Source: Gammaproteobacteria bacterium (GTDB lineage: Bacteria; Pseudomonadota; Gammaproteobacteria; HIGHO2-12-38-15). From it: 62,486 nucleotides of DNA. Of this stretch, positions 138 through 28,991 are shown in pieces (within the stretch, counting starts at the first letter, position 1; each line of letters opens with the position of its first letter). A program made the position numbers and the translations under genes. A model generated the notes under the pieces. It worked only from the letters and a program-made list of their open reading frames with translations. It ran no database searches and was not told the DNA's origin. The stretch covers positions 1-62,486 of the forward strand of contig JACREE010000012.1 in NCBI GenBank assembly GCA_016218405.1, in the 5' to 3' direction.

Positions 138-3071
138 TTACGTTTTAACTGCCTCTATTTTCATGCGTGTGGTGGTAGGCCCTTCTGGGTTGATAAAAAA
201 CGAAGTGGCATGTGTGCATTTCATTTTGATGGCCAGTGCTATTATTGAGAACAGAATTAAACCGGCTAGGAGGATGGCAATATTTAACAAGACGATGCCC
301 GCTCCGCGGTGTTGATCAATTGCTTCTTTACACGCTGGCATTGCGATTTTATTCAGGATCGCCATGCTCTCATCTAGTTGTTTATTTAGGTTAACGTCCG
401 TACGCTGATTAATATAGTCCTGAGCACAGCAAAGGTGAAACAGAAGGATATCTAAGTCTGATTTGATTTCAGTCAGATGGGGAATCACAGCGCTCTTATA
501 GCACCTGCCGTTTAAATCGTTAATTTGTTTTTTCAACGCCAAAAATTCATTTTTTAATTGGGGTAGATCTAAGAAGATTTTCTCATAAGCATTCTGTATT
601 TTTTTCTCCTTTGCTTTCTGCTCTTGCTTGCGCATAGCTGTAATATTGAGATCTCTTCGCAATGCGGCCATGTTCTCTGTTAATGTTTGGAATACTTCAG
701 GCGTTTTATAATGTGATTCCCCTAATATTTGTAAATATTCTTCAGGTGTTTGACCCGCCTTGTTTCTGATCTCAGCCCATTCAGGGAAAGACAAGCATTC
801 CCTCGTTAGGGCAGTCACTACCCCCGTGTCACCCATTTCTATTGCAAGGTGTAGCGGTGAATGACCGTTTGAGTGCAGTTGAGCTTTGAAACTGGCAATA
901 GATGTACTGTTTCCAAAGCGTCTCATGAATTGAAGCGCAAAGGCCGTTTGTCCAGCCCTAATCGCAATATGAAGTGGCGTCTCGCCCGCGTTGTTGGGCG
1001 CCCAAAAAAGGCTTAGTCGACTGTCGGAGGGAAATGGCAAACTCAGTACTGATGAATATAAAACTTCAAAACAAGGTAGATCTCCTAGTGCTGCCAACCG
1101 ATGCAAGAGACTGTTACACTTTGTATCCAGGACCGCAATCATTTTCAAATAAAGGCTAGATTTATAATCCGTAAAACAGCCATCTAGATAGTGGTCATTT
1201 GCTGCTTGAGCAACCATGTGTTCCAAGAGCAGATGCATTGCAATTTTGCCCGTCTTATCTTCTGCATTAAGTAATGTTTCAGTAAAAGCTATTTCTCGCC
1301 CAGCAAGCAATGCTTCAATGATTTCTTCCCTCACACCTGACGGAAAAGCTGCACAGGCATGATGTAAAATAGTCCGGCCCTGGCTATCTACATTCGCTAA
1401 CAAAAACGGCAATATATCGCTTTGGTGTATTTCCACCCACTGCGTTAAAAAATAAGACGTAAACTTACCCCACTTACCTCCGTGTCTTCCAGCGTAACCG
1501 ATGGAGTGAAAAGGCAACAAGCCTTGATTATCAGGATGTGACAGATTAACTCCGGCTCTCAATAAATCTGCCAGAGGTTTTTTTGATAATTGCAGACAGG
1601 CAAGATGCAAGGCATTGCGCCCATCAAGATCTGTTCGGTTGACATATTGATTGACATCGATTCCACGCTGCCGGGCAGCGTCGAGCAAGAGGGAAATGGC
1701 ATCCGCCGTTTCATACCTTTTCCCAGACATGGCACACCGATGGAAAGGCGTTCGACCTTTATTGTCTGTTGCCTCAATATCTGCCCCTGCCGTAAGTAAT
1801 GCGCGAATAGTTATTGTTGATGTGTCTTTATCAACAGCAAAATGTAAGGGTGTGCTACCCTCATGGTTGAACGCACTTACATCTGCCCCTGCTTCAAGCA
1901 ACTGGCGAATGATAATCGCTGACTTTTTCTTCCCCTTTTTACGAGCAAAAAAGTGTAGCGGGGTGTCACCGTGTGAATCTGGTTGATTTGCTCGTGCGCC
2001 CAAGCTGATTAAATAGGGAATTAATGCACTGCAAAAAGAGCGATCCATACAAGCATAGTGCAATGCTGTTTGTTTCATTTGTGCATTCAAGGCATTTATT
2101 TTTGCGCCATGCTCAAGCAGTGATGTGATGCCCCGTTTGTAGTTATGGATTACTGCGCTACAGAGCAGTGACTGATGATCTAAGCCCTGTACAACCAAAT
2201 CGATGTCGCCAGGCTCTGATTCTTGATCAAACTTCTTTAACAGAACCTCCAATGCTTCGTCATCTTTCAATTCTAAAGCCGCAAATAAACAATCATCAAG
2301 CTGCTCGTCTGTGATGCGATCAAACTGCCTGCACTGCACACGATCAAGAGGTGTTATTTTATAATCTGGTTCTTTGCTTAAGGCTAAGAAAACCGCATCT
2401 AACACCTCTTGCGCTGCCGGGTCTTTTTGCAAAATGGCTAAGGGCGATAACGGTGTATTTTCATGAGTGATCATTAAAATGGGGAAAAAAGATTTGATGG
2501 GCATTGCCTGCGATCTACTAAACAACCTCTGTATCCAATTTTCTGTTTGCTCTTCACGTTGCTTCTGCTGATGCGTCTCATCATATTTTTTTTGTTGCAA
2601 GCGATACATTTGAGTAATGTTGTTTGCTATACGTAGAATTTCTTCATGATTTCTTGCTACCGCCGCCGCATATAAGGTCATTATTTTTTGATGTGCCGTT
2701 TTATTGATAAAATTTGTAAAAGTGTTGGATTGAACAAGAACCCCATTAAATGGGAAATAATTGTTCGGCGGCAAACTGAAACGTATCTGATTAAAAGCTT
2801 CAGTAAAAGCACGATAATTCAAATCTGAGGGTGTTTCTAAGGCATATTTTTGATAGAGTCGTGTAACGACTTGTCTATCATTCACCATGCGATATCCAGC
2901 ACGCGAGACGCGGGCCATATTGGCCAGACTCTGCAGATCATGCTCGATTAAATAAGGGAGTAGGTGATTAATAAGAAAGTCTTCTAGCGCTGGCGCCTCT
3001 GGAAAATGGGTCATGATCAGCGGCGCACTATCCACATCCATCGGTAGGGTTGAAGTGCCTGGCATAGTCAA
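138..3071 (-). CDS. Eukaryotic-like F-box / multi-ankyrin-repeat protein with C-terminal coiled coil and one TM helix (candidate Dot/Icm effector)
   Basis: 977-aa ORF. The N-terminus LINHLLPYLIEHDLQSLANMARVSRAGYRMVNDRQV fits the F-box pattern. There are many G-TPLH-A..G...LL..GA ankyrin units (e.g. DSHGDTPLHFFARK, HEGSTPLHFAVDK, NKGRTPFHRCAMSG, NAGETPLHIAIRAG). The C-terminal hydrophobic stretch is GIVLLNIAILLAGLILFSIIALAI. Confidence 0.8.
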   Translation of the reverse strand: MTMPGTSTLPMDVDSAPLIMTHFPEAPALEDFLINHLLPYLIEHDLQSLANMARVSRAGYRMVNDRQVVTRLYQKYALETPSDLNYRAFTEAFNQIRFSLPPNNYFPFNGVLVQSNTFTNFINKTAHQKIMTLYAAAVARNHEEILRIANNITQMYRLQQKKYDETHQQKQREEQTENWIQRLFSRSQAMPIKSFFPILMITHENTPLSPLAILQKDPAAQEVLDAVFLALSKEPDYKITPLDRVQCRQFDRITDEQLDDCLFAALELKDDEALEVLLKKFDQESEPGDIDLVVQGLDHQSLLCSAVIHNYKRGITSLLEHGAKINALNAQMKQTALHYACMDRSFCSALIPYLISLGARANQPDSHGDTPLHFFARKKGKKKSAIIIRQLLEAGADVSAFNHEGSTPLHFAVDKDTSTITIRALLTAGADIEATDNKGRTPFHRCAMSGKRYETADAISLLLDAARQRGIDVNQYVNRTDLDGRNALHLACLQLSKKPLADLLRAGVNLSHPDNQGLLPFHSIGYAGRHGGKWGKFTSYFLTQWVEIHQSDILPFLLANVDSQGRTILHHACAAFPSGVREEIIEALLAGREIAFTETLLNAEDKTGKIAMHLLLEHMVAQAANDHYLDGCFTDYKSSLYLKMIAVLDTKCNSLLHRLAALGDLPCFEVLYSSVLSLPFPSDSRLSLFWAPNNAGETPLHIAIRAGQTAFALQFMRRFGNSTSIASFKAQLHSNGHSPLHLAIEMGDTGVVTALTRECLSFPEWAEIRNKAGQTPEEYLQILGESHYKTPEVFQTLTENMAALRRDLNITAMRKQEQKAKEKKIQNAYEKIFLDLPQLKNEFLALKKQINDLNGRCYKSAVIPHLTEIKSDLDILLFHLCCAQDYINQRTDVNLNKQLDESMAILNKIAMPACKEAIDQHRGAGIVLLNIAILLAGLILFSIIALAIKMKCTHATSFFINPEGPTTTRMKIEAVKT

Positions 3072-3171
3072 TATCCTCGCTATTTTCTGCTCCTGTCTGA
3101 CTGATGGCTTTAAAGTACCATTTTCGGATTAAGAGACTATTATGCAGGTCATTCGTTGGACTATATTTGTA

Positions 3172-3263
3172 TTTTAGCCAAAAATTGGCTGAAACAACCC
3201 TGGTGTTTTAGCCAAAAAATGGCTTAAACACCCTTGTGTTTTAGCCAAAAAATGGCTAAAGTA
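3172..3263. repeat. Three tandem ~33-bp repeats, each holding the palindrome TTAGCCA-N5/6-TGGCTAA
   Basis: Copies at 3172-3205, 3206-3238 and 3239-3263 (partial). They lie in the divergent intergenic region between the F-box gene and the AAA ATPase gene, ending 29 nt before the ATPase ATG. Confidence 0.85.
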
Positions 3264-3291
3264 TCTATTTTAATGAGGGGTTGGAGGGTTT

Positions 3292-4623
3292 ATGCGTCGA
3301 GATATTGAGTTTGAACTAATGCGATGGAAAGACCAAAAAATGCCAATGCCGTTATTGTTGAGGGGCGCGAGACAGGTAGGAAAAACATATATTATAGAAA
3401 AATTTGGGCAAGAACATTTTGAAAAAATTGTTACTATAAATTTTGAATTGCAACCTGAAATGACTCGCTGCTTTGAAAAGCTTGAGCCCACTGAAATTTT
3501 AAATACCATTTTTTTGCTTACCCAACAAAAAATTGTGCCACAAAAAACCTTACTATTTTTAGACGAAATTCAGGATTGCCCTAATGCTATTCGAGCCTTG
3601 AGATACTTTAAAGAAAAACTACCTCAGCAACACGTCATTGCTGCAGGATCGCTGCTCGAATTTACTCTCAATGACGCTGGTTTTAGTATGCCTGTCGGAA
3701 GAGTGCAATCATTGTATTTGAAGCCTCTTTCATTTAAAGAGTATTTGGTCGCTAGAGGGGATGCGCCTTTACGTAAATTGATAGAAAGTATAGATTTAAG
3801 CATCCCTATAGAAGAAGTTGTTCATGAACGTTTGCTAAAATTGGTGCGGGAATATATGGTGCTAGGAGGTATGCCCGCTACCCTTCAATATTATTTTGAT
3901 AACCGAGATTTGAGTGGGTTTCAATATATTCAGAATGGATTACTCAACACATATCGGCAAGATTTTGGGAAATATGCAAAAAAATCAGAATATCAATATT
4001 TGCAAAAACTTTTTGAAAAAATTCCTGGATTAGTAGGGGAAAATTTCAAGTATTCTAGAGTAGACCCAGACATGAGGTCGCGCGATATTAAAGATGCTTT
4101 ATACATGTTGAAAAATGCGGGACTGATATACTCTGTTTATGCTACTGCTGCAAGTGGATTACCTCTGGCGAGCTTGGTCAATGAAAAAAAATTTAAAATT
4201 TTATTTCTTGATGTAGGGTTAATGACACGTGTGGGTAAGTTAGAATCAGAGGTATTGTTAAACGAAAATATATTTTTGGTAAATCGCGGTGTATTGTCTG
4301 AGCAGTTTGTGGGGCAAGAGCTGTTAGCCTATATGCCTCATTTTGAAGAAGGGAGCCTATATTTTTGGTTGCGTGAAAAAAAATCTAGCATGGCAGAAGT
4401 AGATTTTGTTTCAACGGTTGGGGCCAATATTATTCCTATTGAAGTTAAAGCTGGTACCACGGGTACCTTAAAATCTTTGAAATTGTTTATTGAAGAAAAA
4501 AATATAAAATTTGGTGTGCGTATTTCACAGCAACCCTTAAGCTATATAGATAAAGTTTTATCGATGCCGCTCTACATGGTTGGAGAGATAGCCAGAATGG
4601 TTACACCTCTTATACGAATCTAA
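3292..4623 (+). CDS. AAA+ ATPase of the AAA_14/DUF4143 (COG1373) type
   Basis: 443-aa ORF. Walker A is LLRGARQVGKT and Walker B-like is LLFLDEIQ. Size and layout are typical of DUF4143 ATPases. RBS GGAGGG lies upstream. Confidence 0.7.
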   Translation: MRRDIEFELMRWKDQKMPMPLLLRGARQVGKTYIIEKFGQEHFEKIVTINFELQPEMTRCFEKLEPTEILNTIFLLTQQKIVPQKTLLFLDEIQDCPNAIRALRYFKEKLPQQHVIAAGSLLEFTLNDAGFSMPVGRVQSLYLKPLSFKEYLVARGDAPLRKLIESIDLSIPIEEVVHERLLKLVREYMVLGGMPATLQYYFDNRDLSGFQYIQNGLLNTYRQDFGKYAKKSEYQYLQKLFEKIPGLVGENFKYSRVDPDMRSRDIKDALYMLKNAGLIYSVYATAASGLPLASLVNEKKFKILFLDVGLMTRVGKLESEVLLNENIFLVNRGVLSEQFVGQELLAYMPHFEEGSLYFWLREKKSSMAEVDFVSTVGANIIPIEVKAGTTGTLKSLKLFIEEKNIKFGVRISQQPLSYIDKVLSMPLYMVGEIARMVTPLIRI

Positions 4624-4674: not shown

Positions 4675-5262
4675 TCAGTCTAGCGAAACGTCAACAGGCT
4701 CTAGATTTTTATACTTAATAGTAAAAATTTCCTTTTTAGAGTTTCCTTCTTCATCGATGTCATAGTTGAGCTGAATTTTGTTATCAGTAAGAAATTTTAC
4801 TTCGGCAGAGATATCTGCCCCCTGATAGAATTGACGCTCGATTTTGATTATTTTTCCATGGCTATTAAATAATCTAATGATGTTAAGCGTGTTATCTGTT
4901 TTATCTTTCCGATCTGGGAGTACAACAATTCCTTTGGCAGGGTTAATAGCCAGCACGTCATAGAGTGGATTACTTTTTTCTCCGGTTTTAAAATTAACGA
5001 AAATTGAATAACTACAATTATTACCACATCCTAGGATAGCAACGCCTAAGTCATTATTATAATGCTTAAAGGCTGTTCTTGATTTGTAATTCTCAGTCCA
5101 GCCTTCAGAGGCCAATATTTTTTTTCCATTATTTAATATTGCGTAGAGGTTGCAGTTATTGTCTGAACATGACCATTGAAATTTCTCAAAAGAGAATGAG
5201 GTGGAAGTGATAAAAAGAAGTATGAGAAAGCTGACTAAATTTGTTATTTTTTTTTGTTTCAT
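4675..5262 (-). CDS. Secreted/periplasmic protein of unknown function; putative immunity partner of the upstream Hcp-hydrolase
   Basis: 195 aa with an N-terminal signal peptide (MKQKKITNLVSFLILLFITSTSFSF). Its start overlaps the upstream stop by 4 bp (ATGA). It has several Cys pairs. Confidence 0.6.
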   Translation of the reverse strand: MKQKKITNLVSFLILLFITSTSFSFEKFQWSCSDNNCNLYAILNNGKKILASEGWTENYKSRTAFKHYNNDLGVAILGCGNNCSYSIFVNFKTGEKSNPLYDVLAINPAKGIVVLPDRKDKTDNTLNIIRLFNSHGKIIKIERQFYQGADISAEVKFLTDNKIQLNYDIDEEGNSKKEIFTIKYKNLEPVDVSLD

Positions 5263-6284
5263 CGGTTATCCCTTGGAGATACTTTTTTTAAAAAGCGAAA
5301 ATCATCGTTAACCTGTAGTCTTGGGATATTAACATCGACCAACTCATGCCTGCTTTTCCCTCTTAGTACCCAGCCTGGAATAACAGAGGTATATTTCTCT
5401 GGGTTTTTATCATGTCCATTTTTCTGAGCGTTGGGACTGTAGTAATGATCTGCATCTGTTGTTAACTTATTGTCGTAGTAAATAGGCTTTAATAAGGTAA
5501 TCATTCTATCAAGGTGGGGTGGTTTAGATGTGTTTTGGTTTGATAAATAATGCCAAGCTATGCGAAATGTTTTATTCTTCGAACCATATGCTTCGTACCA
5601 ACTGGGTTGAGTGATAACTTCATCTGTTGAGCTGCAAATAAGTGTATGTCCTTTTTCACCGCATCGGAAATATTTACTATTTACGCGATTTATTATTGAT
5701 GAAGCAACGGCTTGCCATGCTGCTTCACTTTGGCCAGCTGCTTCGCCGTAGACGGTTGCCACAAATAACTTAAATCCCTCATCTGAACGTTTAGTGAGCT
5801 GGCGTTTTAATTGTGCAGCATGACTGGGCTTCGATCCTGTTTGTACTTTGGCAGAGATGGGTCCTGGGAGACCTTGTTCGTTTGAAAAATAACGGATTTC
5901 AAGATGTGTAAAATTGAAGGCAAGAGCTTCAATGGGTTGATCGTCGCTGATGGCAAAGAAATCATATTCACTGACTAACACATTTTCTAATTTGTATTGG
6001 ATGAGAGGCATATTTGTGGCAGTGACAACATCAATTGTTACTTCAGGTATTGCTTTTCCAGTGCAGGCTTCGCTGAAGAAAAAAGGAGAGGTCCTGTCGG
6101 CATCTTTGAAAAGATGTATTTCGTGCGCCTGTATGTGAGAAAAAATCCGGTTTGAAGTATTGTCGGGGGAGGCGAGAGCCTCTCTTTCAGCAGAGAAGGT
6201 TAATCCAGTTGCTTCGATCCAACCTTCGTAGCCTTTGGCTGTGACATTTCCTTTTTGATTGGGTACGTGCAGGTAGATAGTCAT
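5259..6284 (-). CDS. Hcp (T6SS tube protein)-like N-terminal domain fused to a SleB/CwlJ-type cell-wall hydrolase domain
   Basis: 341 aa. Residues 1-150 parallel Hcp1: IYLHV..KGNVTAKGYEGWIEATGLTFS; LFKDADRTSPFFFSEACTGKAIPEVTIDV; IQYKLENVLVSEY; ALAFNFTHLEIRY. The C-terminal half has the Hydrolase_2 signature VATVYGEAAGQSEAAWQAVASSIINRV. Confidence 0.7.
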   Translation of the reverse strand: MTIYLHVPNQKGNVTAKGYEGWIEATGLTFSAEREALASPDNTSNRIFSHIQAHEIHLFKDADRTSPFFFSEACTGKAIPEVTIDVVTATNMPLIQYKLENVLVSEYDFFAISDDQPIEALAFNFTHLEIRYFSNEQGLPGPISAKVQTGSKPSHAAQLKRQLTKRSDEGFKLFVATVYGEAAGQSEAAWQAVASSIINRVNSKYFRCGEKGHTLICSSTDEVITQPSWYEAYGSKNKTFRIAWHYLSNQNTSKPPHLDRMITLLKPIYYDNKLTTDADHYYSPNAQKNGHDKNPEKYTSVIPGWVLRGKSRHELVDVNIPRLQVNDDFRFLKKVSPRDNR

Positions 6285-6428: not shown

Positions 6429-6505
<77 letters not shown>

Positions 6506-11378: not shown

Positions 11379-12044
11379 ATGTTATTCAGCCACCTCAATT
11401 GGGTAGATTACCTTATTCTGTTTGCTATTCTTGTGTCCGTGATTGTGTGTTATCGCCGCGGCTTTGTGGGTAGTACCCTAACTTTATTATGTTGGGTATT
11501 AGCTTTGGGCGGATCATTCAAGCTTGCTCATCCTGTGGGTAATATGTTTGAATCTTCAGTCAAAAGCGAACAAATCCGAAACATCCTGGGATTTTTTATT
11601 ATCTTTATTGGCTTGGCCTTGGTGGGCGTATTGATTATTTATTTATTTAATCATTTGCTTGAAAAAGGGGCCTTGCATAAAACAGATAAAGTAGTGGGAG
11701 GTTTTTCGGGGATTATCGTGGGTGTTTTTGTCATTGCGGGTATATTGCTTACCGCGCGTTACAGTAAATTACCTGAGCGTCCTTTTTGGACACAGTCATT
11801 TTTGATTCCTTATTTTCATCCTTTCGAAGATGTCATTGATGATTGCTTGCCCACAGCCATTCAAGCTGAGCGTGATTTAATGCCAGAAGATATTGATAAA
11901 ACGCTTGAGAAGAACATATCTGACGTAACGGATAAGGTAGAAGATACGACAGAGCAAGCGAAAGAAAAAGTGGAAGATGTGCAAGATAAGGGAAAGAAAG
12001 CCAGTGATGCGGTGAAAGATCTGACGGATGAAATAAAAGAGTAA
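11379..12044 (+). CDS. cvpA: CvpA-family membrane protein with a C-terminal charged extension
   Basis: Four TM segments beginning MLFSHLNWVDYLILFAILVS. The ATG at 11379 is preferred over the track start at 11337 because AGGAG lies 6 nt upstream. Synteny supports the call. Confidence 0.8.
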   Translation: MLFSHLNWVDYLILFAILVSVIVCYRRGFVGSTLTLLCWVLALGGSFKLAHPVGNMFESSVKSEQIRNILGFFIIFIGLALVGVLIIYLFNHLLEKGALHKTDKVVGGFSGIIVGVFVIAGILLTARYSKLPERPFWTQSFLIPYFHPFEDVIDDCLPTAIQAERDLMPEDIDKTLEKNISDVTDKVEDTTEQAKEKVEDVQDKGKKASDAVKDLTDEIKE

Positions 12045-12059
12045 GTAGATAAGTGGAGT

Positions 12060-12099
12060 GGGGGGGGTAACTGCAACACGTTACCTCCCCTCTTTCACT
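12060..12099. terminator. Bidirectional rho-independent terminator between convergent cvpA and the acyl-CoA dehydrogenase gene
   Basis: GGGGGGGGTAAC-tgcaacac-GTTACCTCCCC stem-loop with one mismatch, followed by a T-rich tract (tctttcactttattttt). Confidence 0.65.
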
Positions 12100-13245
12100 T
12101 TATTTTTCAGATGCAAAAATTTGTTTTGAAATAATGTTTCGCATAATTTCATTGCTGCCTTCTAAAATTTGATTAGCACGTAAGTCACGAAAATGGCGTT
12201 CGATGCCATAATCTTTTAAGTAGCCATAGCCTCCATGTAACTGCAGTGCCTGATCACTGATATGAAATCCTGCGTCTGTGGCGTAACGTTTTGCCATCGC
12301 ACAATAAAGCGCAGTATCAGGGTGTTGGGCGTCATACGCTTGAGCAGCGCGATAAACCAATAAGCGAGCCGCTTCTAACTCTGTGAGCATGTCAGCAACC
12401 TTAAATTGTAACACCTGAAATTCAGCGAGCTTTTTATTAAATTGTTCTCGTTCTTTCATGTAGCGTAGGGTTTTTGTTAGGCAGGCTTGTGCACCACCGA
12501 GCGAGCAAGCAGCGATATTAATGCGTCCGCCATTTAGTGCATTCAAAGCAATTTTGAATCCTTCTCCTTCTTTACCAATCAAATTTTCAATAGGTACTTT
12601 GCAGTTTTCAAAATAAACCATGGTGGTGGGTTGACTGCACCAACCTAATTTTTCTTCCTTTTTGCCGAAGCTGAGGCCGGGTGTGTTTTTTTCAACAAAG
12701 ATACAGGAGATACCTTTGGGGCCCGCTTCACCTGTTCGTACCATGCAAACATAAATATCGCTGACAGAACCGCCTGAAATAAATGCTTTAGTGCCATTAA
12801 GAAAATAGTAATTATCTTGACGCAAGGCGGTGGTTTTTAATGAGGCTGCATCTGAACCTGCACTGGGTTCTGTTAAACAATAACTTCCTAGCCAATTCAT
12901 GCTAACCAGGGAGGGAAGCCATTTTGCGCGTTGTGTTTCATTCGCATAGGTATCGATGAGGCCGCATACCATGTTATGGATGGATAAAAAAGCAGCGGTT
13001 GAAAGGCAACCCTGTGCGAGTTCTTCAAAGATGAGTGCCGCATCCAGACGTGATAATCCGGTGCCTCCAAATTCATGCTTTGTGTAAATTGCAGCCAAGC
13101 CTAGCGCAGCCGCTTCATGTAAAGTAGGAAGAGAGAAAAATTCATTTGCATCCCATTCTTGCGCGTACGGCGCAAGCTTTTGTTCAGAAAAATTCTTGGC
13201 TAATTGTTTGAAGGCATATTGTTCATCTGAAAGTTCAAAATCCAT
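12100..13245 (-). CDS. Acyl-CoA dehydrogenase (short/branched-chain type)
   Basis: 381 aa with ACAD family motifs (CLTEPSAGSDA, GGYGY..DYGIERHFRD..ILEGSNEI). Confidence 0.9.
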   Translation of the reverse strand: MDFELSDEQYAFKQLAKNFSEQKLAPYAQEWDANEFFSLPTLHEAAALGLAAIYTKHEFGGTGLSRLDAALIFEELAQGCLSTAAFLSIHNMVCGLIDTYANETQRAKWLPSLVSMNWLGSYCLTEPSAGSDAASLKTTALRQDNYYFLNGTKAFISGGSVSDIYVCMVRTGEAGPKGISCIFVEKNTPGLSFGKKEEKLGWCSQPTTMVYFENCKVPIENLIGKEGEGFKIALNALNGGRINIAACSLGGAQACLTKTLRYMKEREQFNKKLAEFQVLQFKVADMLTELEAARLLVYRAAQAYDAQHPDTALYCAMAKRYATDAGFHISDQALQLHGGYGYLKDYGIERHFRDLRANQILEGSNEIMRNIISKQIFASEK

Positions 13246-13307: not shown

Positions 13308-13565
13308 ATGGCTGTCACGGATCAAACACACTGGCGTGATTCGGCTCGCACTGCACGATTTTTTATGATTGATGCGCGGGCTGCTTTTCCACTTATTTTC
13401 TTTTTGTTATACATTCACTGGTGGACATTCATTGTTGCGACCGTGACAATGATATTTTTTGGATTGCTCGAGCGTTATGGATTTACTTTGCCCGTGTTTT
13501 GGCGTTGGCTCCGCTCTTTTTTGGCGGGCCCTCACCGAGCTTCACGAGAATGGTGGAGAACTTAA
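13308..13565 (+). CDS. icmT: Dot/Icm T4BSS protein IcmT
   Basis: 85-aa membrane protein (HWRDSARTARFFMIDARAAFPLIFFLLYIHWWTF...). Size and position match first place in an icmT-S-R-Q-P-O array. Confidence 0.75.
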   Translation: MAVTDQTHWRDSARTARFFMIDARAAFPLIFFLLYIHWWTFIVATVTMIFFGLLERYGFTLPVFWRWLRSFLAGPHRASREWWRT

Positions 13566-13903
13566 TGGATATCAGTAAACAGTTGTGTCAGTTGGCGAGG
13601 GCATTAAAAGTTACTTTTATGTTGAGTCAGCGCGTCGTGATGCCCGAAGAAATTTTTCAAGACACGGGCTTATTTCCTGCGATTGTGCGTAGAGCTGATC
13701 AATTGGCTTCATTGTGTTTAGGTTATGGTTTGGGTGCTTCTTTTACTGAAGCGGAGGGGGCTTTGTTAGGAGTACGCGTTGCTTTTGATGATGTCACGCC
13801 CAATGCATTACGTTATTTGTGTATTCTGGATGTCTTGTATGAGTTGATTCATGCCTCAGGTAATCCCAGCGCAGTGTCCCTTGATGAGCTTATGTATGAC
13901 TAA
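13565..13903 (+). CDS. icmS: Dot/Icm chaperone/adaptor IcmS
   Basis: 112 aa starting at the ATG that overlaps the icmT stop (TAATG). The 5' extension of the track ORF (13421) overlaps icmT and was trimmed. Motifs GLFPAIVRRADQLASLCLGYGLG and DELMYD-COOH match IcmS as I recall it. Confidence 0.8.
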   Translation: MDISKQLCQLARALKVTFMLSQRVVMPEEIFQDTGLFPAIVRRADQLASLCLGYGLGASFTEAEGALLGVRVAFDDVTPNALRYLCILDVLYELIHASGNPSAVSLDELMYD

Positions 13904-13941
13904 AAAATAATCAATAAAATAATTTAACTCATCGTGATGTT

Positions 13942-13973
13942 TTAATCCCAACTTAAGCCAGATGTCCTACACT
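13942..13973 (+). promoter_or_regulatory. Possible PmrA-type direct repeat (TTAAT-N6-TTAAG, 11-bp period) plus a TACACT -10 upstream of the icmR-like gene
   Basis: The sequence tTTAATcccaaCTTAAgcc-gatgtcc-TACACT resembles the Legionella/Coxiella PmrA element cTTAATatT-N2-cTTAATatT followed by TAtACT. Confidence 0.3.
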
Positions 13974-14011
13974 CACTTTATGAAGGGGTGTTTTAAATTT
14001 TAGGAGTGGTC

Positions 14012-14302
14012 ATGACTTCCACGCGTACAGAGCAAGCGCTTGCTGAGACTGAAGTTATCTTAAGAAGAATAGAAGAGGCGCTCGAGCAGGCGCTGAAGTT
14101 TCATGAACATCGCACGGCAGGGGCGTTGACGAATAATGCAGCAGAGGGTAAAAAGCGTGATCATTTAACGGCCGCATTGAAATCAATACGTGAATCATTG
14201 GGGGATGTGGGTGAGCTTGTTGCCTTGCATACTCTCAATAAATCACATAGGAATGGCGACCCAGATACCGGTAAAAAGACCCATCTGCCTGGCAAGTCAT
14301 AA
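14012..14302 (+). CDS. IcmR-position (FIR-type) small helical protein, putative IcmQ partner
   Basis: 96 aa from the ATG at 14012, with AGGAG 5 nt upstream (track start GTG 14006). It lies between icmS and icmQ and is predicted helical/charged. I recognise no sequence family. Confidence 0.55.
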   Translation: MTSTRTEQALAETEVILRRIEEALEQALKFHEHRTAGALTNNAAEGKKRDHLTAALKSIRESLGDVGELVALHTLNKSHRNGDPDTGKKTHLPGKS

Positions 14303-14350
14303 AAAAGTGTTATACTTCTACTATTCCCCCTTGATGACGAAAACAACATT

Positions 14351-14938
14351 ATGATTGGCAGTCGTCGGAATGATGCAGCAATAAATGAAAAATTACTTTC
14401 CATCTTGGACCATTTGATAGAAGGTGATTGTTGGGACAAGAGTCTTTTTTTACAAGCAGCAGGACGTGAAGTCACCACGCTGCGAGATAGGCTACAAACA
14501 ACACTTGAACTGCCTGAACCCACAGAAACAGAAGAGACCTTAGCTTCTTCTTCCCGTTCTTCTTCAGTGAAATCCGCCGACTCGCAACAAGAAGTGTACG
14601 TGGCGCTTTATCAAGCGCAGGGAAGTAATATGTTAAATTGGGAGCATGCCTTAGATTTTCTGCTTAGCCGTAGCTCATCTCGTCCGATTTATGACACAGA
14701 AGAAAAAGTAAAAAACATGATGATAAAAAAAGAAAACACGCCTAATAATGCTTATGCCGTGGTCAGTATTGATAAATCTGATGTACTTTTTACGCCAGAG
14801 AAACAAGTGTTTGATCGATATGGTCAAGAATTGTTAACGTTGCGCGAGCATGCGTTGAAAGCAGATAATATCCGCCGATTTGTTCATAGTACAGGCACTT
14901 ACCGTTTAGAAAAAAGACATTTGATTAAGCAGAAATAA
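14351..14938 (+). CDS. icmQ: Dot/Icm protein IcmQ
   Basis: 195 aa. The N-terminal LLSILDHLIEGDCWDKSLFLQAAGREVTTLRDRLQ resembles the IcmQ N-domain. Size and position in the array fit. Confidence 0.75.
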   Translation: MIGSRRNDAAINEKLLSILDHLIEGDCWDKSLFLQAAGREVTTLRDRLQTTLELPEPTETEETLASSSRSSSVKSADSQQEVYVALYQAQGSNMLNWEHALDFLLSRSSSRPIYDTEEKVKNMMIKKENTPNNAYAVVSIDKSDVLFTPEKQVFDRYGQELLTLREHALKADNIRRFVHSTGTYRLEKRHLIKQK

Positions 14939-14984
14939 TTGTTTAAGGTTATGCGATAAGTGTACTCTTCTATGAGGTTGTTTC

Positions 14985-16124
14985 GTGGCAGCAGCTCCCC
15001 CTCCCCAGCAAGGTTCTGGTGGCCAACAAGACAGTGGGCTTGGGCCTTTTTGGATCATTGCCGCGCTATTTTTTGCCTTGTATGTTGTTTGGAGTAATTA
15101 TCACACGGAAATTGTGGGTAGTTTTCTAAAATTAAAATACTACGAAGCATTAGCTATTGTTTACGTTGATCCTTCCATTGATCCTCTCGCCAGAATGTTG
15201 GGTAATTTAACACCTGCTGAATACGCAAAAATTGATCCTGATCAAGTCATTGCTATTTCTGAAGCAGTAGGGCGTTATTGGCGCTGGCCTGTTCTCGCAT
15301 TTTGCATTTTAGGTGGTGGATTTATCTATAAACGAAGTCCGCGTTTGCATTATCGTCGTATGTACACGATGCAATCTTTAATTGATGCAGAAGAAGGAGA
15401 TTGGCCGCAAATTACGCCAGTAGTGAAAATTAATTTAGTAAAAACACATTTGGATGAGGGGCCTTGGGCTTCTGCACAAACCCCCTTGCAATTCGTCAAA
15501 AAATATAAAATTTTTAAAGAAGTGCCTGCTGAAAGTATTGAGCCTATGCTTGCGCATAAAATGAAACGCTATATTGCTTTGCTGCCCGAGCAAGCTTATC
15601 GCGTGTTATCGATGCAGATGGGGAAATTATGGACAGGTATCGATAAACAACCTATCTATATACAAGCCTTATTTGCAGCCTTTGCGGCAAAGCATGCAGG
15701 TAAAACTGAAATAGCAGCGAATTTATTGATACAAATTTCGCGTTCTTCTGCGGCGGGTAAGTTAAATTTTGCAGGTGTCAAACAACTTTTAAACAAACAC
15801 GTCAACGAAAAAAAAATACAAGAAATATGCGCTAATCATGCTTATATGTTAACGGTGATGGCCTCTATGCTGGAATTGGCGCGACAAGATGGTGTATTAA
15901 GTAGCGCTGATTTTTTGTGGTTGAAGCCACTGGATAGGCAGTTGTGGTACATGTTGAATACGGTGGGTCGACAAACTGCTTATGTAGAAGTCGCTGCCGC
16001 CTATGCACACTGGCGTGCTGAAATCGAATTTGGTCGAAAGATTAAAGTGCCCATGGTGGGCGAAGCCGTAAAAGCTTTGGATGTTGCGCTAAAAGACATT
16101 CTTTATGTTCCGGAAGATTTATGA
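14985..16124 (+). CDS. icmP: Dot/Icm coupling-complex protein IcmP/DotM
   Basis: 379 aa with a GTG start, a Gln/Gly-rich N-terminus and then a TM helix. Its end overlaps the icmO start by 4 bp. Size and synteny match DotM. Confidence 0.75.
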   Translation: MAAAPPPQQGSGGQQDSGLGPFWIIAALFFALYVVWSNYHTEIVGSFLKLKYYEALAIVYVDPSIDPLARMLGNLTPAEYAKIDPDQVIAISEAVGRYWRWPVLAFCILGGGFIYKRSPRLHYRRMYTMQSLIDAEEGDWPQITPVVKINLVKTHLDEGPWASAQTPLQFVKKYKIFKEVPAESIEPMLAHKMKRYIALLPEQAYRVLSMQMGKLWTGIDKQPIYIQALFAAFAAKHAGKTEIAANLLIQISRSSAAGKLNFAGVKQLLNKHVNEKKIQEICANHAYMLTVMASMLELARQDGVLSSADFLWLKPLDRQLWYMLNTVGRQTAYVEVAAAYAHWRAEIEFGRKIKVPMVGEAVKALDVALKDILYVPEDL

Positions 16125-18469
16125 TACGTGGTTTAGATAAAAGCGACGAAGCCAATCCGCATTATCTTTTGCGTGATACGCGCCCGCTTGGAAAGCGGTT
16201 CGTCGATTTTATTGCTGATCCTTTTAACCTGCTTATCCTCATGTTGTCTTTAGGAACTGGCCCGCTTTTTTTCCCTGAAATGGCTGATATAAGTGGTTTG
16301 TGCGCAGTAGTTTTGTTTTTGTCCACTTGTCGAATCAAAGCTAAATTACCCTTCCGATTACCTTTGCGTTCAAAATTAAAAGACTATAACGATCTGACGC
16401 CGGGCAAGGACAGTCAACCGCGTATGGCGGGGGGGATTTATTTTTTTGGTAATCAACTTTCAACCCAAGAAGAGTTGTGGTTTACCAATGATGATATGCG
16501 TACCCACGTCTTGATTTTTGGTTCAACCGGAAGCGGTAAAACAGAATCACTGATTTCAATTGCCTTTAATGCTTTGATACAAGGAAGTGGTTTTATCTAT
16601 ATCGATGGAAAAGGTGATAACAGTTTGTTTGCAAAAATTTTCTCGATGGTGCGTCGGATGGGTCGAGAAGATGATATGTTGCTCATTAACTTCATGACAG
16701 GCGCACGCGATGTCATTGGTCCTCAGGAAAAACGTCTTTCTAACACCATGAATCCTTTTTCAATGGGTTCATCCAGTATGTTATCGCAGCTGATCGTGGG
16801 GCTTATGCCAGAGGGCAGTAATTCAGGCGACGGTGATATGTGGAAAGGCCGTGCGATTGCTTTCGTTGAAGCCTTGATGAAGGTATTGGTGTACGCCCGT
16901 GACAGAGGGTACATCTTGCTTGATGCGAATACCATTCGTAATTATTTTGATTTAGCCCGTCTCGAAGCCATGGTCGTAGACAAACAATTTATTCGTGATA
17001 ACCAAGAGCCAGTGAGTTTAGCGGATGCACCTTCTATCATTCTGGAACCCATCAGTAATTACCTAAGTACTTTGCCAGGCTATGATCGTTCTAAGAAAGG
17101 TAAACAAGTATCGCAAGTGTTAGAGCAGCATGGTTTTATTACGATGCAATTAACGCGAGTATTCGGTTCTTTGGCAGATACCTATGGTCATATCGTGCGT
17201 GCTAATTTGGCAGAAGTGGATGTGAAAGATGTGGTGTTAAATCGTCGTATTTTGTGCGTACTCTTGCCCGCACTTGAAAAAGCCCCGGATGAGTTGGCCA
17301 ACTTAGGTAAAATTATCGTTGCTTCATTAAAGGCAATGATGGCGGCCGGTTTAGGTGATGAAGTTGAAGGAACATACAGTGATGTTATTTTAAGAAAACC
17401 CACCAATTCGCCCACGCCTTTCTTATGTATCATGGATGAATATGGATACTATGCAGTAAAAGGCTTTGCTGTTGTGCCTGCGCAAGCGCGTTCTTTAGGA
17501 TTTTCTGCTATTTTTGCGGGACAAGATTTGCCTGCTTTTCAAAAAGCCTCCAAAGAAGAAGCGGCGTCCATTGGTGCAAACACCAACATTAAAATTTGTA
17601 TGAAGTTGGAAGATCCGGCTGAAACGTGGGAGTTTTTCCAAAAAACAGCCGGTGAAGCCTATGTGACGAAGGTGGATTCTTTCCAAACACAAACCACGAG
17701 TTTGACGGGTGCTTACATGGATACCCGCAGTGCATCTTCTGAAAAAAGAGCGCGTATTGACTTAATGGATCTTAAAGAGCAAACACCCGGTGAGGCCCAT
17801 ATTTTTTTCCGTTCCACGATTATCCGTGCACGCATGTTTCGAGCGGATCCTAAGCCAGTGGATTACATGCGCCTAAATCAATTGCTGAAAGTGGAGCTGC
17901 CTTCCATGCGACAGTTGATCACATTGAACAACGGCATGGTAAAATTTTATGAAACAGTTGAAAAAGGCGATGCGTTTGAAGGGGTGCATGCGGAGAGTGA
18001 AGGTATCACTTGGTTGGCTAAAATGTTGAGTGATCCAATGGTAGCAGATTCAATTGAACGGGGAGTCAATGCTTTATTAGGATTTCACACGCGTTCAGAA
18101 GAAGCCACACAGAAAATTGAAGAAGTATCCGAACCCGAGTCTTTGACTGAATTAACTATTTTTACCTCAATGCGTTTGCCGCAAGGGGTGGGCGAATTAA
18201 AAATACCTAAAGATAGAGTGGAAAGTTTTACTGCGCCTTTGCTAAGCAAATCACAACTGCGCTCCCAGCTAGCGTATGTTGAGCGTCTTTCAGGAAAAGC
18301 AGATAAGCAGGTGGGTATTATCGCGGATGAGCTAGTAAAAGATGCTCAGCTTGCCACTTACTATCCGCCACACATCGCTGAACCACCTTCGGCTGACATC
18401 ATAGCGGGTATTGTGAATGATTTAGCAAGCAGTATTCAAAAAGCAATCGGTACAGCCAGCGGTGCGTAG
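16121..18469 (+). CDS. icmO: Dot/Icm type IV coupling protein IcmO/DotL
   Basis: 782 aa with N-terminal TM segments, Walker A GSTGSGKT and Walker B-like CIMDEYGYY. Size is very close to L. pneumophila DotL as I recall it. Confidence 0.9.
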   Translation: MIRGLDKSDEANPHYLLRDTRPLGKRFVDFIADPFNLLILMLSLGTGPLFFPEMADISGLCAVVLFLSTCRIKAKLPFRLPLRSKLKDYNDLTPGKDSQPRMAGGIYFFGNQLSTQEELWFTNDDMRTHVLIFGSTGSGKTESLISIAFNALIQGSGFIYIDGKGDNSLFAKIFSMVRRMGREDDMLLINFMTGARDVIGPQEKRLSNTMNPFSMGSSSMLSQLIVGLMPEGSNSGDGDMWKGRAIAFVEALMKVLVYARDRGYILLDANTIRNYFDLARLEAMVVDKQFIRDNQEPVSLADAPSIILEPISNYLSTLPGYDRSKKGKQVSQVLEQHGFITMQLTRVFGSLADTYGHIVRANLAEVDVKDVVLNRRILCVLLPALEKAPDELANLGKIIVASLKAMMAAGLGDEVEGTYSDVILRKPTNSPTPFLCIMDEYGYYAVKGFAVVPAQARSLGFSAIFAGQDLPAFQKASKEEAASIGANTNIKICMKLEDPAETWEFFQKTAGEAYVTKVDSFQTQTTSLTGAYMDTRSASSEKRARIDLMDLKEQTPGEAHIFFRSTIIRARMFRADPKPVDYMRLNQLLKVELPSMRQLITLNNGMVKFYETVEKGDAFEGVHAESEGITWLAKMLSDPMVADSIERGVNALLGFHTRSEEATQKIEEVSEPESLTELTIFTSMRLPQGVGELKIPKDRVESFTAPLLSKSQLRSQLAYVERLSGKADKQVGIIADELVKDAQLATYYPPHIAEPPSADIIAGIVNDLASSIQKAIGTASGA

Positions 18470-26746: not shown

Positions 26747-27644
26747 GCGCTGCCCCCTGCATAGACAGCAAACCCGATCGTCCTTCAACACTACCTTGAA
26801 TGAAGTCACAAACAGGCGTTGTTTGTTTATTTTCAAGATAGGGTTGAGCGATTTCCGCCAAGGTTTTAAAAACAACGCCTTTTTTCTTAGCAGCAATCAC
26901 AAAGCGCTCCATAAAAGCCAATTGAGCCATGCCTTCGATTTCTGTGTGAACAGTAAAGATGTTAGGTTGATCTGTCTTCAATAAACCCATGTAATAATCT
27001 ACCAGCGTAGATTCAGGATAATCAGGCCGACCCAATAATTCATCCAAGGTGGGGAGCGTAGTGGGCAGCTGCAAAGCCTGAAATGTTTGTCCCTCAATAT
27101 GGGGAAAAAAGGGAGACGTGCCACGACAATCACTGGCATAAACCAAGTGTTGAGCATCATACGCACGAAGTGTTTTCACGTTCGCTTGCCAGCCAGCCGC
27201 ACCCGCTGTTTTGGCAGGAAAACGAAAAACATCGAGAAAAGTATCGCAAGCACGTTTGAATTCTGCCTGGATTTTATCCTCGGGCAAGGTAGAGACTCCA
27301 TCTTGCCAATACGTATGATCATACGAGTGGATACCCACTTCAAAACCATGCCGACAAGTAGCTTGCATCAATGCAGCGTGACGTTTGGCAATGAAAGGGC
27401 CCGGCCATAACACGCCATTCAATAAAGTTCTCAAACCATAGGTTTTTAGCACACTGGTGCGCGATACTTTTTTTAAAAAACCGGGTCGAAAAATACGTTT
27501 TAAAGCGCGACCAGTATTATCTGGCCCGAGTGTAAATAAAAAAGTAGCGGGTATATTGTGGACTAGAAATAATTTTTCTAAATTGGGTAAGCCAATTCGT
27601 GTGCCTCGTTCTGTATCTATGTCAACTTTAATACCCAACAACAT
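26712..27644 (-). CDS. arnD: ArnD-like polysaccharide-deacetylase-family deformylase/deacetylase (4-deoxy-4-acylamido-L-arabinose-phosphoundecaprenol)
   Basis: 310 aa. GIKVDIDTERGTRIGLPNL...FLFTLGPDNTGRALKRIFRPGFLKK parallels the E. coli ArnD N-terminus. Adjacent to arnC. Confidence 0.85.
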   Translation of the reverse strand: MLLGIKVDIDTERGTRIGLPNLEKLFLVHNIPATFLFTLGPDNTGRALKRIFRPGFLKKVSRTSVLKTYGLRTLLNGVLWPGPFIAKRHAALMQATCRHGFEVGIHSYDHTYWQDGVSTLPEDKIQAEFKRACDTFLDVFRFPAKTAGAAGWQANVKTLRAYDAQHLVYASDCRGTSPFFPHIEGQTFQALQLPTTLPTLDELLGRPDYPESTLVDYYMGLLKTDQPNIFTVHTEIEGMAQLAFMERFVIAAKKKGVVFKTLAEIAQPYLENKQTTPVCDFIQGSVEGRSGLLSMQGAALTFDSLSQINT

Positions 27645-27646
27645 GG

Positions 27647-28570
27647 CTAGTTTTCCAATATATTTTTAATTAAATAACGAGGGCGACGTCTCACTGTTTG
27701 ATAAATACGACCAATGTATTCACCCAAGATGCCCATTCCCATTAATAAAACACCCACTAAGAAATATAAAATAGCAAACAGGGTGAACATGCCTTCTGCT
27801 TCAGGTCCGACAATAAGTCGTCTGATAAACATGTAGATCACAAAGGCAGTGCTGACGAGTGAGACGCAGATACCTACGAAGGTAAATAATTGCAAGGGAA
27901 CCAAAGAAAAACCTGTCATCAAATCAAAATTCAAACGCATTAAGCGATAGATATTATATTTTGATTTTCCTACTGTGCGTGCATCATGATTGACTTCAAC
28001 TTCGCCTGGATGACTCGAAAAACTATAGGCTAAAGCAGGGATAAATAAGGCAGATTCTTCACATTGCGTCATCAGATCAACGATGTGGCGTCGGTAGGCG
28101 CGCAGCATGCTGCCTTGATCCTCCATTTTTATCCCTGTTATTTTATAACGAATTTTATTATTGAGTTTAGAGGCGTAGCGACGAAAGCGATTGTCTTGTC
28201 GTTCTTTTCGAATACCGCCGACTGAATCACAACCTTCTTCAATTTTGGCAATCAGTTTAGGTATTTCTTCAGGTGGATTTTGTAGATCAGCATCAAGTGT
28301 GACAACGATGTCGCCGCGAACACGTTCAAAACCAGCCATGATGGCGCGATGTTGCCCAAAATTACCATTAAAGTTAATAACGCGCAGCTTATCCGGCCAT
28401 TGTTTATAAAGTTGCTGTAATAGTTTTTCCGAACCATCTGTGCTGCCATCATTTACCATGATGATTTCATAGGGGTGATGTAATGAATCCAGGGTGGTAA
28501 TCAATCTTTCACACAGTGATCGTAAATTGCCTTCCTCATTAAAAACAGGAATCACAATACTTAGCTTCAT
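27647..28570 (-). CDS. arnC: ArnC-like GT2 undecaprenyl-phosphate amino-arabinose transferase
   Basis: 307 aa with LSIVIPVFNEE and DADLQNPPEEI motifs and two C-terminal TM helices. Confidence 0.88.
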   Translation of the reverse strand: MKLSIVIPVFNEEGNLRSLCERLITTLDSLHHPYEIIMVNDGSTDGSEKLLQQLYKQWPDKLRVINFNGNFGQHRAIMAGFERVRGDIVVTLDADLQNPPEEIPKLIAKIEEGCDSVGGIRKERQDNRFRRYASKLNNKIRYKITGIKMEDQGSMLRAYRRHIVDLMTQCEESALFIPALAYSFSSHPGEVEVNHDARTVGKSKYNIYRLMRLNFDLMTGFSLVPLQLFTFVGICVSLVSTAFVIYMFIRRLIVGPEAEGMFTLFAILYFLVGVLLMGMGILGEYIGRIYQTVRRRPRYLIKNILEN

Positions 28571-28581
28571 CTTTTCTCCTT

Positions 28582-28944
28582 TTAATTAGTGCGGGCGATG
28601 AGATAAACCCCAAAAATAATGACAAAAATACCCATAATTCGGGTCAAGGATAAATATTCATTAAAAATAATGGCGGCACTGATAGCCGTTGTGATGTAGG
28701 CCAAGCTCGAGATAGGGTGAGCTACGCTAACAGGGACACGAGAAAGCACGATAATCCAAACTCCTACGCTGACCACGTAGCAACACAGGCCTAGAAATAG
28801 ATAAGGATTGGAGATTAGGTTGATGAACGATTCATACCAATGAGACCAAGAAAGTACTTTCAGTCTATCGGCCCCAGCCTTAAGCAAGAGCTGAGCGGCG
28901 GTATTAATCACAGAAGAAATCAGAATAAGGGCGAAAGTGGGCAT
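28582..28944 (-). CDS. ArnE/ArnF-like SMR-fold flippase subunit
   Basis: 120-aa, 4-TM protein lying between arnC and arnT. Only one copy is present. Confidence 0.65.
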   Translation of the reverse strand: MPTFALILISSVINTAAQLLLKAGADRLKVLSWSHWYESFINLISNPYLFLGLCCYVVSVGVWIIVLSRVPVSVAHPISSLAYITTAISAAIIFNEYLSLTRIMGIFVIIFGVYLIARTN

Positions 28945-28991
28945 AGTTTTTCAAGTCTAATTAAAGATTGACTATAATCCTCTAAACTTTA

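Follow-up and report, generated by a model that had tools for sequence, protein, structure and literature searches.

We analyzed a pair of overlapping genes in a 62,486-nt stretch of contig JACREE010000012.1 (the whole of it referred to as the window), which encode a 341-aa fusion protein with an Hcp domain, the tube protein (TssD) of type VI secretion systems (T6SS), and a 195-aa protein with a signal peptide. Open reading frames (ORFs) and translations were checked against the positions given in an earlier annotation made without database searches (the sequence-only reading); both ORFs, their ATGA overlap and the size of the 195-aa product are exactly as given there. The following features were assigned to the pair:

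5259..6284 (minus strand): gene of the 341-aa putative specialized ('evolved') Hcp effector, with Hcp domain, linker and SleB-type toxin domain (ORF, Pfam, AlphaFold2 model)
5835..6284 (minus strand): Hcp (TssD) tube-protein domain, residues 1 to ~150 (PF05638, Foldseek)
5262..5792 (minus strand): predicted SleB/Hydrolase_2-type lytic-transglycosylase toxin domain, residues ~165–341 (profile, fold)
5742–5744 (minus strand): putative catalytic Glu181 (VYGEAAG), aligned with the YGE of 4F55
4675..5262 (minus strand): gene of the 195-aa putative periplasmic immunity protein (ORF, overlap, homologs)
~5188–5262 (minus strand): signal peptide of the 195-aa protein, about residues 1–25 (N-terminal composition)

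The toxin and partner ORFs share 4 nt (5259–5262, ATGA), with the ATG start at 5262–5260 and the TGA stop at 5261–5259; judged from this overlap, the 195-aa gene is translationally coupled to the 341-aa gene.

The Pfam model PF05638 (T6SS_HCP) spans residues 4–132 of the fusion protein and is matched over its entire length (model positions 1–129 of 129; E = 1.8e-20, 73.9 bits, cutoff 23.5). The subfamily model TIGR03344 reached only 26.6 bits against a cutoff of 58.9, and the Hcp of the window is therefore a divergent member. Hcp sequences in the Protein Data Bank (PDB) matched the 341-aa protein at ~1e-6. A full-length AlphaFold2 (AF2) model, built on 16 family sequences, had a predicted local distance difference test (pLDDT) score of 81.5, and the Hcp1 structures 1Y12, 4W64 and 5XHH superposed on it with Foldseek E-values of ~1e-12 and a target-normalized TM-score (TMt) of ~0.8. 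Over the Hcp folds 1Y12, 4W64, 5XHH and 3V4H, TMt ranged from 0.75 to 0.90, which indicates the Hcp beta-barrel. The assignment of the N-terminal ~150 residues to Hcp in the sequence-only reading is thus borne out by the full-model PF05638 match and by the Hcp1 fold of the AF2 model.

The closest unfused Hcps, which are true tube proteins of T6SSs, are 30–41% identical to the Hcp domain of the window. The gene of one, P0176, belongs to a complete T6SS cluster and has VgrG, VipA/B, ClpV, TssG and TssF as neighbors. Between intact paralogs, the ratio of non-synonymous to synonymous substitution rates (dN/dS) of the Hcp domain was 0.13–0.18; the domain has therefore been kept by selection over a long divergence. 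This purifying selection argues against a relic as an explanation for the family and, together with the true-tube relatives, favors a working T6SS in the carrier lineages, without being a proof for the genome of the window.

Single-sequence searches with the C-terminal domain remained weak (PDB phmmer E = 0.37–1.1; NCBIfam SleB 19 bits) and were insufficient, so that the domain had to be assigned by family profile and by fold. A profile of 14 C-domain sequences matched the SleB catalytic domain 4F55 in the PDB (E = 3.4e-5), and the motifs VYGE, AVAxVIxNRV and YY.P stood in register with 4F55 in the alignment. Because the full-length Foldseek query returned Hcp matches only, the C-domain was modeled separately. 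The resulting AF2 model (pLDDT 91.7, predicted TM-score 0.88) had SleB 4FET and 4F55 as its sole significant PDB fold matches, with a probability of 1.00 and TMt of 0.63–0.65. The Hydrolase_2 cutoff of Pfam is passed by the family members L020 (255 aa, 41 bits), L036 (32.5 bits) and L040 (28.4 bits), and 58/82 multi-domain relatives match PF07486 at E ≤ 1e-3. The Hydrolase_2 signature that the sequence-only reading had recognized is real, although sub-threshold for the single sequence, and is supported by the SleB profile, the fold and the relatives. The column of Glu181 holds a glutamate in 148/149 aligned relatives; that this residue is catalytic in SleB was taken from the literature as cited in PMC11148199 and from residue counting in the 4F55 construct. 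As judged from profile and model, the C-domain is a predicted lytic transglycosylase of the SleB type, in which the YGE glutamate, Glu181, would be the catalytic acid. Its dN/dS between intact paralogs was 0.08–0.22. A single relative, P0004 (328 aa), has a lysine in place of the conserved glutamate (VYGKAAN), and its toxin may be inactivated.

At the N-terminus of the 195-aa partner, the basic n-region MKQKK precedes a hydrophobic core of 12 residues, which has a mean Kyte-Doolittle value of 2.64 and leads to an end of the SFS/FE type. A basic n-region and hydrophobic core were present in 17/17 partner homologs examined, in agreement with the signal peptide proposed earlier for the downstream gene. 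The partner proteins also have conserved cysteines, which together with the signal-peptide-like N-termini fit export to the periplasm. In every intact locus with downstream sequence, a partner homolog of ~180–215 aa directly follows the toxin gene, mostly overlapping it, and this synteny holds for Hcp-fused toxins as well as for toxins with an unrecognized N-terminus. Among the PAAR fusions, a 187-aa ORF comes after the gene of L047, and on the short contig of L034 no match to the immunity family was found. Identities of toxins and partners correlate with r = 0.95, a value reached in 0/2000 Mantel permutations. The partner diverges faster than the toxin (mean identity 32% vs 46%), and its dN/dS between intact paralogs was 0.16–0.44. 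By sequence and analogy, such traits would typify a cognate immunity protein of the periplasm. Searches of Pfam and of the PDB by sequence profile returned no relative; the partner defines an unannotated family of ~195-aa signal-peptide proteins.

In L001 (11802–12473) and L004 (5804–6502), additional immunity genes have no Hcp fusion next to them, and L017 contains a second pair (11744–13029) consisting of a lone C-domain and an immunity gene; these extra copies look like orphan immunity arrays. Besides that, a short Hydrolase_2-like gene followed by a 195-aa ORF was observed in Firmicutes bacterium UBA4881 (L023/L041, 9959–10996). This ORF matches the immunity profile weakly (E ~1e-5, 20.6 bits); the partner family may be older than its use with the T6SS, or the match may be due to chance.

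Distribution and carriers of the toxin domain

A word-indexed search for relatives of the 341-aa protein recovered 15 sequences, all from metagenomes: 13 had an Hcp domain (two of them truncated), one was fused to PAAR and one was without a carrier domain. The family members are 31–54% identical and retain the full-length Hcp profile match. An exhaustive profile search with the C-domain yielded 362 representative clusters. Fusion partners were counted by Pfam among the 82 multi-domain representatives, with the following result:

C-domain fused to PAAR: 6 representatives
C-domain fused to DUF4280: 3 representatives
C-domain fused to VgrG (Phage_GPD): 5 representatives
C-domain fused to Rhs: 6 representatives
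C-domain fused to Hcp: 4 representatives

Cell-wall-binding modules (LysM, PG_binding_1, Peptidase_M23) were found among the fusions too. Examples are P0015, L034 and P0023/L047 for PAAR and L043 and L045 for Rhs, and every Hcp-fused representative falls within the clade of the window protein. Occurrence of the C-domain on PAAR, VgrG and Rhs as well as on Hcp therefore marks it as a T6SS polymorphic toxin, one toxin/immunity cassette moving among all three types of T6SS carrier (Hcp, PAAR/Rhs, VgrG).

The module is present in high copy number in two related metagenome-assembled genomes (MAGs) of uncultured proteobacteria. At least 7 loci were found in MFD00731.bin.2.180 (L005, L007, L010, L011, L014, L017, L018) and at least 9 in SZAS-81 (L006, L009, L012, L013, L015, L016, L019, L021, L022), with three copies of the module within ~100 kb of one contig. 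Intact, truncated and frameshifted forms are mixed, often beside integrases or transposases: L014, L017, L018, L021 and L022 are truncated or frameshifted, and short Hcp fragments remain in L002, L028 and L029. The 7–9 or more diversified copies suggest strong competition, perhaps in shared amoebal hosts or biofilms. Neighbors of the family loci include eukaryote-like proteins of the kind common in host-associated bacteria (WD40, leucine-rich repeat, Ser/Thr-kinase, ankyrin). As CoxA of the MAG lineage is only ~62–78% identical to that of the window organism, this lineage is not a close relative of the latter.

An observation of its own is the locus L020 (9653–10963; the same sequence in the TARA scaffold L038), in which the 255-aa toxin-domain protein has neither Hcp, PAAR, VgrG nor a signal peptide. 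A ~40-aa insertion separates its YGE motif from the AVASVI helix, an immunity homolog follows, and the locus is placed among the core genes mrdA, rodA, smc, zipA and ligA.

Proposed function and alternative explanations

Taken together, the gene pair probably represents an orphan specialized-Hcp effector, consisting of a SleB-type toxin with a Sec-exported immunity protein, which is served by a T6SS encoded elsewhere. We infer the enzymatic activity, its neutralization by the 195-aa protein, the dependence on a T6SS and the existence of a T6SS elsewhere in the genome. The antibacterial peptidoglycan-hydrolase/immunity module proposed in the sequence-only reading gains support from the domains identified by profile and fold, from the conserved partner and from the presence of the toxin on PAAR, VgrG and Rhs carriers. 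In the proposed mechanism, the Hcp domain would enter the inner tube of the T6SS instead of, or along with, canonical Hcp. Upon contraction of the sheath, the tube would bring the attached C-terminal domain into a neighboring Gram-negative cell, where the SleB-type domain, with Glu181 as catalytic acid, would cut periplasmic peptidoglycan at its glycan strands, so that the attacked cell would round up and lyse. The 195-aa protein would reach the periplasm of the producer via Sec and there bind and block toxin arriving from sister cells. The T6SS machine itself would be encoded outside the 62-kb window.

Several points weigh against this reading. On the window protein alone, PF07486 scored 20 bits (E = 1.1e-3), below the cutoff of 27. 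As already remarked in the sequence-only reading, the window showed no further T6SS gene, neither with Pfam/NCBIfam on the scanned ORFs of ≥150 aa nor by tblastn with VgrG, TssBC, ClpV and TssG probes. Likewise, tblastn with these probes detected no T6SS gene in the flanks (≤10 kb on each side) of ~30 family loci, and the Pfam lists of seven family loci contained none. All Hcp-fused carriers belong to uncultured metagenomic lineages, and the immunity function of the partner is proposed from synteny, localization signal and analogy. Moreover, six toxin domains of ~21 kDa per Hcp hexamer would have to fit into the tube, which is a general puzzle of Hcp proteins with C-terminal toxin extensions (Hcp-ET).

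The missing T6SS genes, in the window and beside every family locus, would also fit a stranded module that arrived on a mobile element in a genome without a working T6SS. The immunity gene would then be kept against SleB-type toxins of competitors, while the undelivered Hcp-toxin gene decays. Integrases and transposases often adjoin family loci, several MAG copies are truncated, frameshifted or reduced to the fragments listed above, and orphan immunity copies do exist, all of which speaks for such a state. However, the window copy is intact and keeps all conserved motifs including the catalytic glutamate, the family still matches the full-length Hcp profile at 31–54% identity, and errors of assembly may account for some of the apparent frameshifts. 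Among intact paralogs, purifying selection on Hcp and toxin (dN/dS 0.08–0.22) is no weaker than on the immunity gene (0.16–0.44), whereas a stranded toxin would show the reverse. We therefore regard this explanation as rather unlikely. A use independent of the T6SS, with Hcp as a ring scaffold or export tag and the 195-aa protein as a periplasmic regulator, appears improbable by a clear measure. Variants of it are a self-directed peptidoglycan remodeler for the assembly of a large envelope machine such as Dot/Icm or a toxin released via the type IVB secretion system (T4BSS) or by lysis. The recognizable secretion machine of the organism is indeed Dot/Icm, dedicated lytic transglycosylases serve many secretion systems, no T6SS gene lies near any copy, and the toxin homolog of L020/L038, which has no T6SS carrier or signal peptide, adjoins mrdA and rodA and keeps the partner. 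Yet the fusion protein has no signal peptide and therefore no route to the periplasm of its own cell, and the nearest Dot/Icm gene is ~7 kb away, with rpoD, accD and folC in between. At least 7 copies per genome, fast-diverging partners and orphan partners are the signature of a conflict system and not of housekeeping, and the same toxin domain is joined to PAAR, VgrG and Rhs. It is similarly doubtful that the family lineages, among them host-associated Legionellales-like bacteria with Dot/Icm and the multi-copy MAGs, lack a T6SS altogether and have repurposed Hcp, either as a carrier working independently of the T6SS or as a self-assembling ring, to deliver a lytic transglycosylase with an antibacterial or envelope-remodeling role, possibly served by the T4BSS. 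If complete genomes should prove T6SS-free, this would mean an Hcp domain working outside the T6SS.

A phage origin was considered as well, in which a prophage would encode the N-domain as a tail-tube protein and the C-domain as an endolysin. Some endolysins do have Hydrolase_2 domains, and weak PHROGs matches were obtained for the N-domain (phrog_27303, of unknown function, 32 bits) and the C-domain (endolysin phrog_938, 24 bits). The T6SS_HCP match is far stronger, with 74 bits over the full model, and all top fold matches are T6SS Hcp. Furthermore, the module is surrounded by rpoD and by genes for a tRNA, an ATPase and an ankyrin protein; genes for capsid, terminase, baseplate or integrase are absent there, and the partner is a signal-peptide protein rather than a holin or spanin. 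The stronger Hcp match, the Hcp folds and the non-phage gene context make the phage reading extremely unlikely and essentially refute it.

Relation to known systems

The T6SS effector reading finds its closest likeness in T6EC3/T6IC3 of Acinetobacter rudis CIP 110305. In T6EC3, PAAR is joined to a C-domain structurally homologous to SleB (4F55). The protein is toxic when placed in the E. coli periplasm, the signal-peptide protein T6IC3 encoded downstream rescues the cells, and the exchange E108Q, at the glutamate aligned with the catalytic residue of SleB, inactivates the toxin (Geller et al. 2024, Mol Syst Biol; PMC11148199). Shared with the pair of the window are the SleB-fold toxin with its glutamate, the downstream signal-peptide immunity gene and the orphan locus; the likeness is drawn from the published description. 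Periplasmic action is experimental for T6EC3 and would apply to the window toxin. The carrier of T6EC3 is PAAR, at the tip of the spike, whereas the window toxin is carried by Hcp in the tube, and T6EC3, unlike the window protein, comes from a free-living Acinetobacter in which a T6SS is known. Within the C-domain family of the window, the PAAR fusions (P0015, L034, P0023/L047) resemble the layout of T6EC3.

A polypeptide combining Hcp and toxin is shared with the well-established Hcp-ET1–5 of Enterobacteriaceae (reviewed in PMC6730261 and PMC6099711) and with T6EC4 of Citrobacter koseri (PMC11148199), and Hcp1 fusions were already among the T6SS toxins of Zhang et al. 2012. A cognate immunity gene directly downstream and a frequent orphan or auxiliary location are also common to these systems. 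The C-domain of the window lies outside the classes ET1–ET5, being of the SleB/Hydrolase_2 class, and its Hcp domain is ~20–40% identical to characterized Hcps. The cargo described for Hcp-ET and T6EC4 presumably comprises nucleases (HNH, pyocin S3, colicin-DNase, Tox-REase-5), DUF2235 and a papain-like peptidase. A fusion of Hcp with a SleB/Hydrolase_2 domain was not found in the published literature searched, in line with the remark in the sequence-only reading that none is known among the described Hcp-ET classes. A putative SleB-type peptidoglycan-cleaving toxin is thereby added to the cargo fused to Hcp. All components are known singly, namely Hcp-toxin fusions, a T6SS toxin resembling SleB that is paired with a periplasmic immunity protein, and T6SSs in Legionellales, so that the novelty lies in the combination only.

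With the SleB/CwlJ spore-cortex enzymes (4F55, 4FET), the toxin domain shares the catalytic fold, the YGE glutamate, the AVAxVIxNRV helix and YY.P. Unlike these enzymes, the window protein has no N-terminal PG_binding_1 domain, and insertions together with a C-terminal extension add ~60 residues to the domain compared with SleB, which is reflected in a query-normalized TM-score (TMq) of 0.45 vs a TMt of 0.65. It also differs in the proteobacterial host, in the proposed role as a toxin instead of in germination, and in having the 195-aa protein as partner instead of YpeB/GerQ. Tse3/Tsi3, Tge/Tgi and VgrG-3/TsiV3 are T6SS enzymes cleaving the glycan backbone, with periplasmic immunity genes in the neighborhood. 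In contrast to the window toxin, Tse3, Tge and VgrG-3 have lysozyme-like or muramidase folds and are delivered as cargo or VgrG fusions, and in PDB sequence searches neither the toxin nor the immunity protein showed a detectable relation to these pairs.

Among Legionella species, L. cherrii, L. dumoffii and L. gormanii are reported to have T6SSs (PMC5348487), restricted clades of Legionellaceae likewise (bioRxiv 10.1101/2024.10.21.619444), and a partial T6SS was described in another Legionellales symbiont (bioRxiv 10.64898/2026.04.11.717937). With T6SSs on record for some Legionella species and for other Legionellales, a T6SS alongside Dot/Icm would not be anomalous. The module points to contact-dependent interbacterial killing in Dot/Icm lineages, which are usually studied only for manipulation of eukaryotic hosts.

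Genomic setting of the gene pair

Two further features adjoin the pair:

6429..6505 (minus strand): tRNA gene with CAU anticodon immediately downstream of rpoD, between it and the module (ARAGORN, called tRNA-Met)
3292..4623 (plus strand): AAA_14/DUF4143 ATPase gene, convergent with the module (AAA_14 E = 1.7e-25, DUF4143 E = 2.5e-27)

The GC content dips to 0.37–0.38 over 3–6 kb, compared with 0.41–0.46 in the flanks, and this low GC around the module suggests horizontal acquisition. In the proposed scenario, the pair was probably acquired horizontally on this small low-GC stretch beside the tRNA(CAU) gene, which is a possible insertion site of the island. We assume that the position of this tRNA gene matches that of E. 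coli ileX (tRNA-Ile2), in which case it may encode a lysidine-modified isoleucine tRNA. Neither an att-like direct repeat of the tRNA end nor an integrase gene was found near the module, and the boundaries of the island are therefore only inferred from GC content. The DUF4143 ATPase gene, located in the same low-GC stretch, was possibly co-acquired as cargo. A scan for promoters and terminators between 4300 and 6700 gave counts no higher than in shuffled sequence.

The intergenic region between the divergent genes of the DUF4143 ATPase and a 977-aa ankyrin protein is occupied by three tandem units of 34 nt (3169–3269), each with a palindrome of the form AGCCAAAAATTGGCT. These repeats may be a repeated operator or binding site. 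The ankyrin-repeat protein itself (138–3071, minus strand) has a hydrophobic C-terminal segment, and a second ankyrin-repeat protein is encoded at 25937–26746 (plus strand); both are candidate Dot/Icm effectors.

A compact Dot/Icm sub-cluster at 13421–18469 (plus strand) encodes an IcmS-like protein with IcmS fold, IcmQ, DotM/IcmP (436 bits) and a DotL/IcmO-type coupling protein; its nearest gene is separated from the module by ~7 kb containing rpoD, accD and folC. The IcmS-like gene occupies the position of icmR in Legionella pneumophila, and the cluster ends after dotL at a gene for an S24-peptidase/helix-turn-helix repressor. The Dot/Icm genes, the ankyrin proteins and an Lgt/SetA-type glycosyltransferase in the window identify the host as a Legionellales-type Dot/Icm bacterium. 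The latter gene, a homolog of Glyco_transf_88 (Lgt/SetA-like glucosyltransferase) at 38766–40145 (plus strand), is followed by unannotated ORFs. Near it, at 40–42 kb, the GC content is the lowest of the window (0.32–0.34), and the region is probably a horizontally acquired effector island. A run of genes on the minus strand at 42.7–56.8 kb was taken as the nuo operon from ORF sizes only. Finally, an Arn-type set for lipid A modification is located at 23202–30641 (minus strand), comprising a UDP-sugar decarboxylase similar to the C-terminal part of ArnA, an ArnC-like family 2 glycosyltransferase, a deacetylase-like gene and an ArnT-like 4-amino-arabinose transferase.

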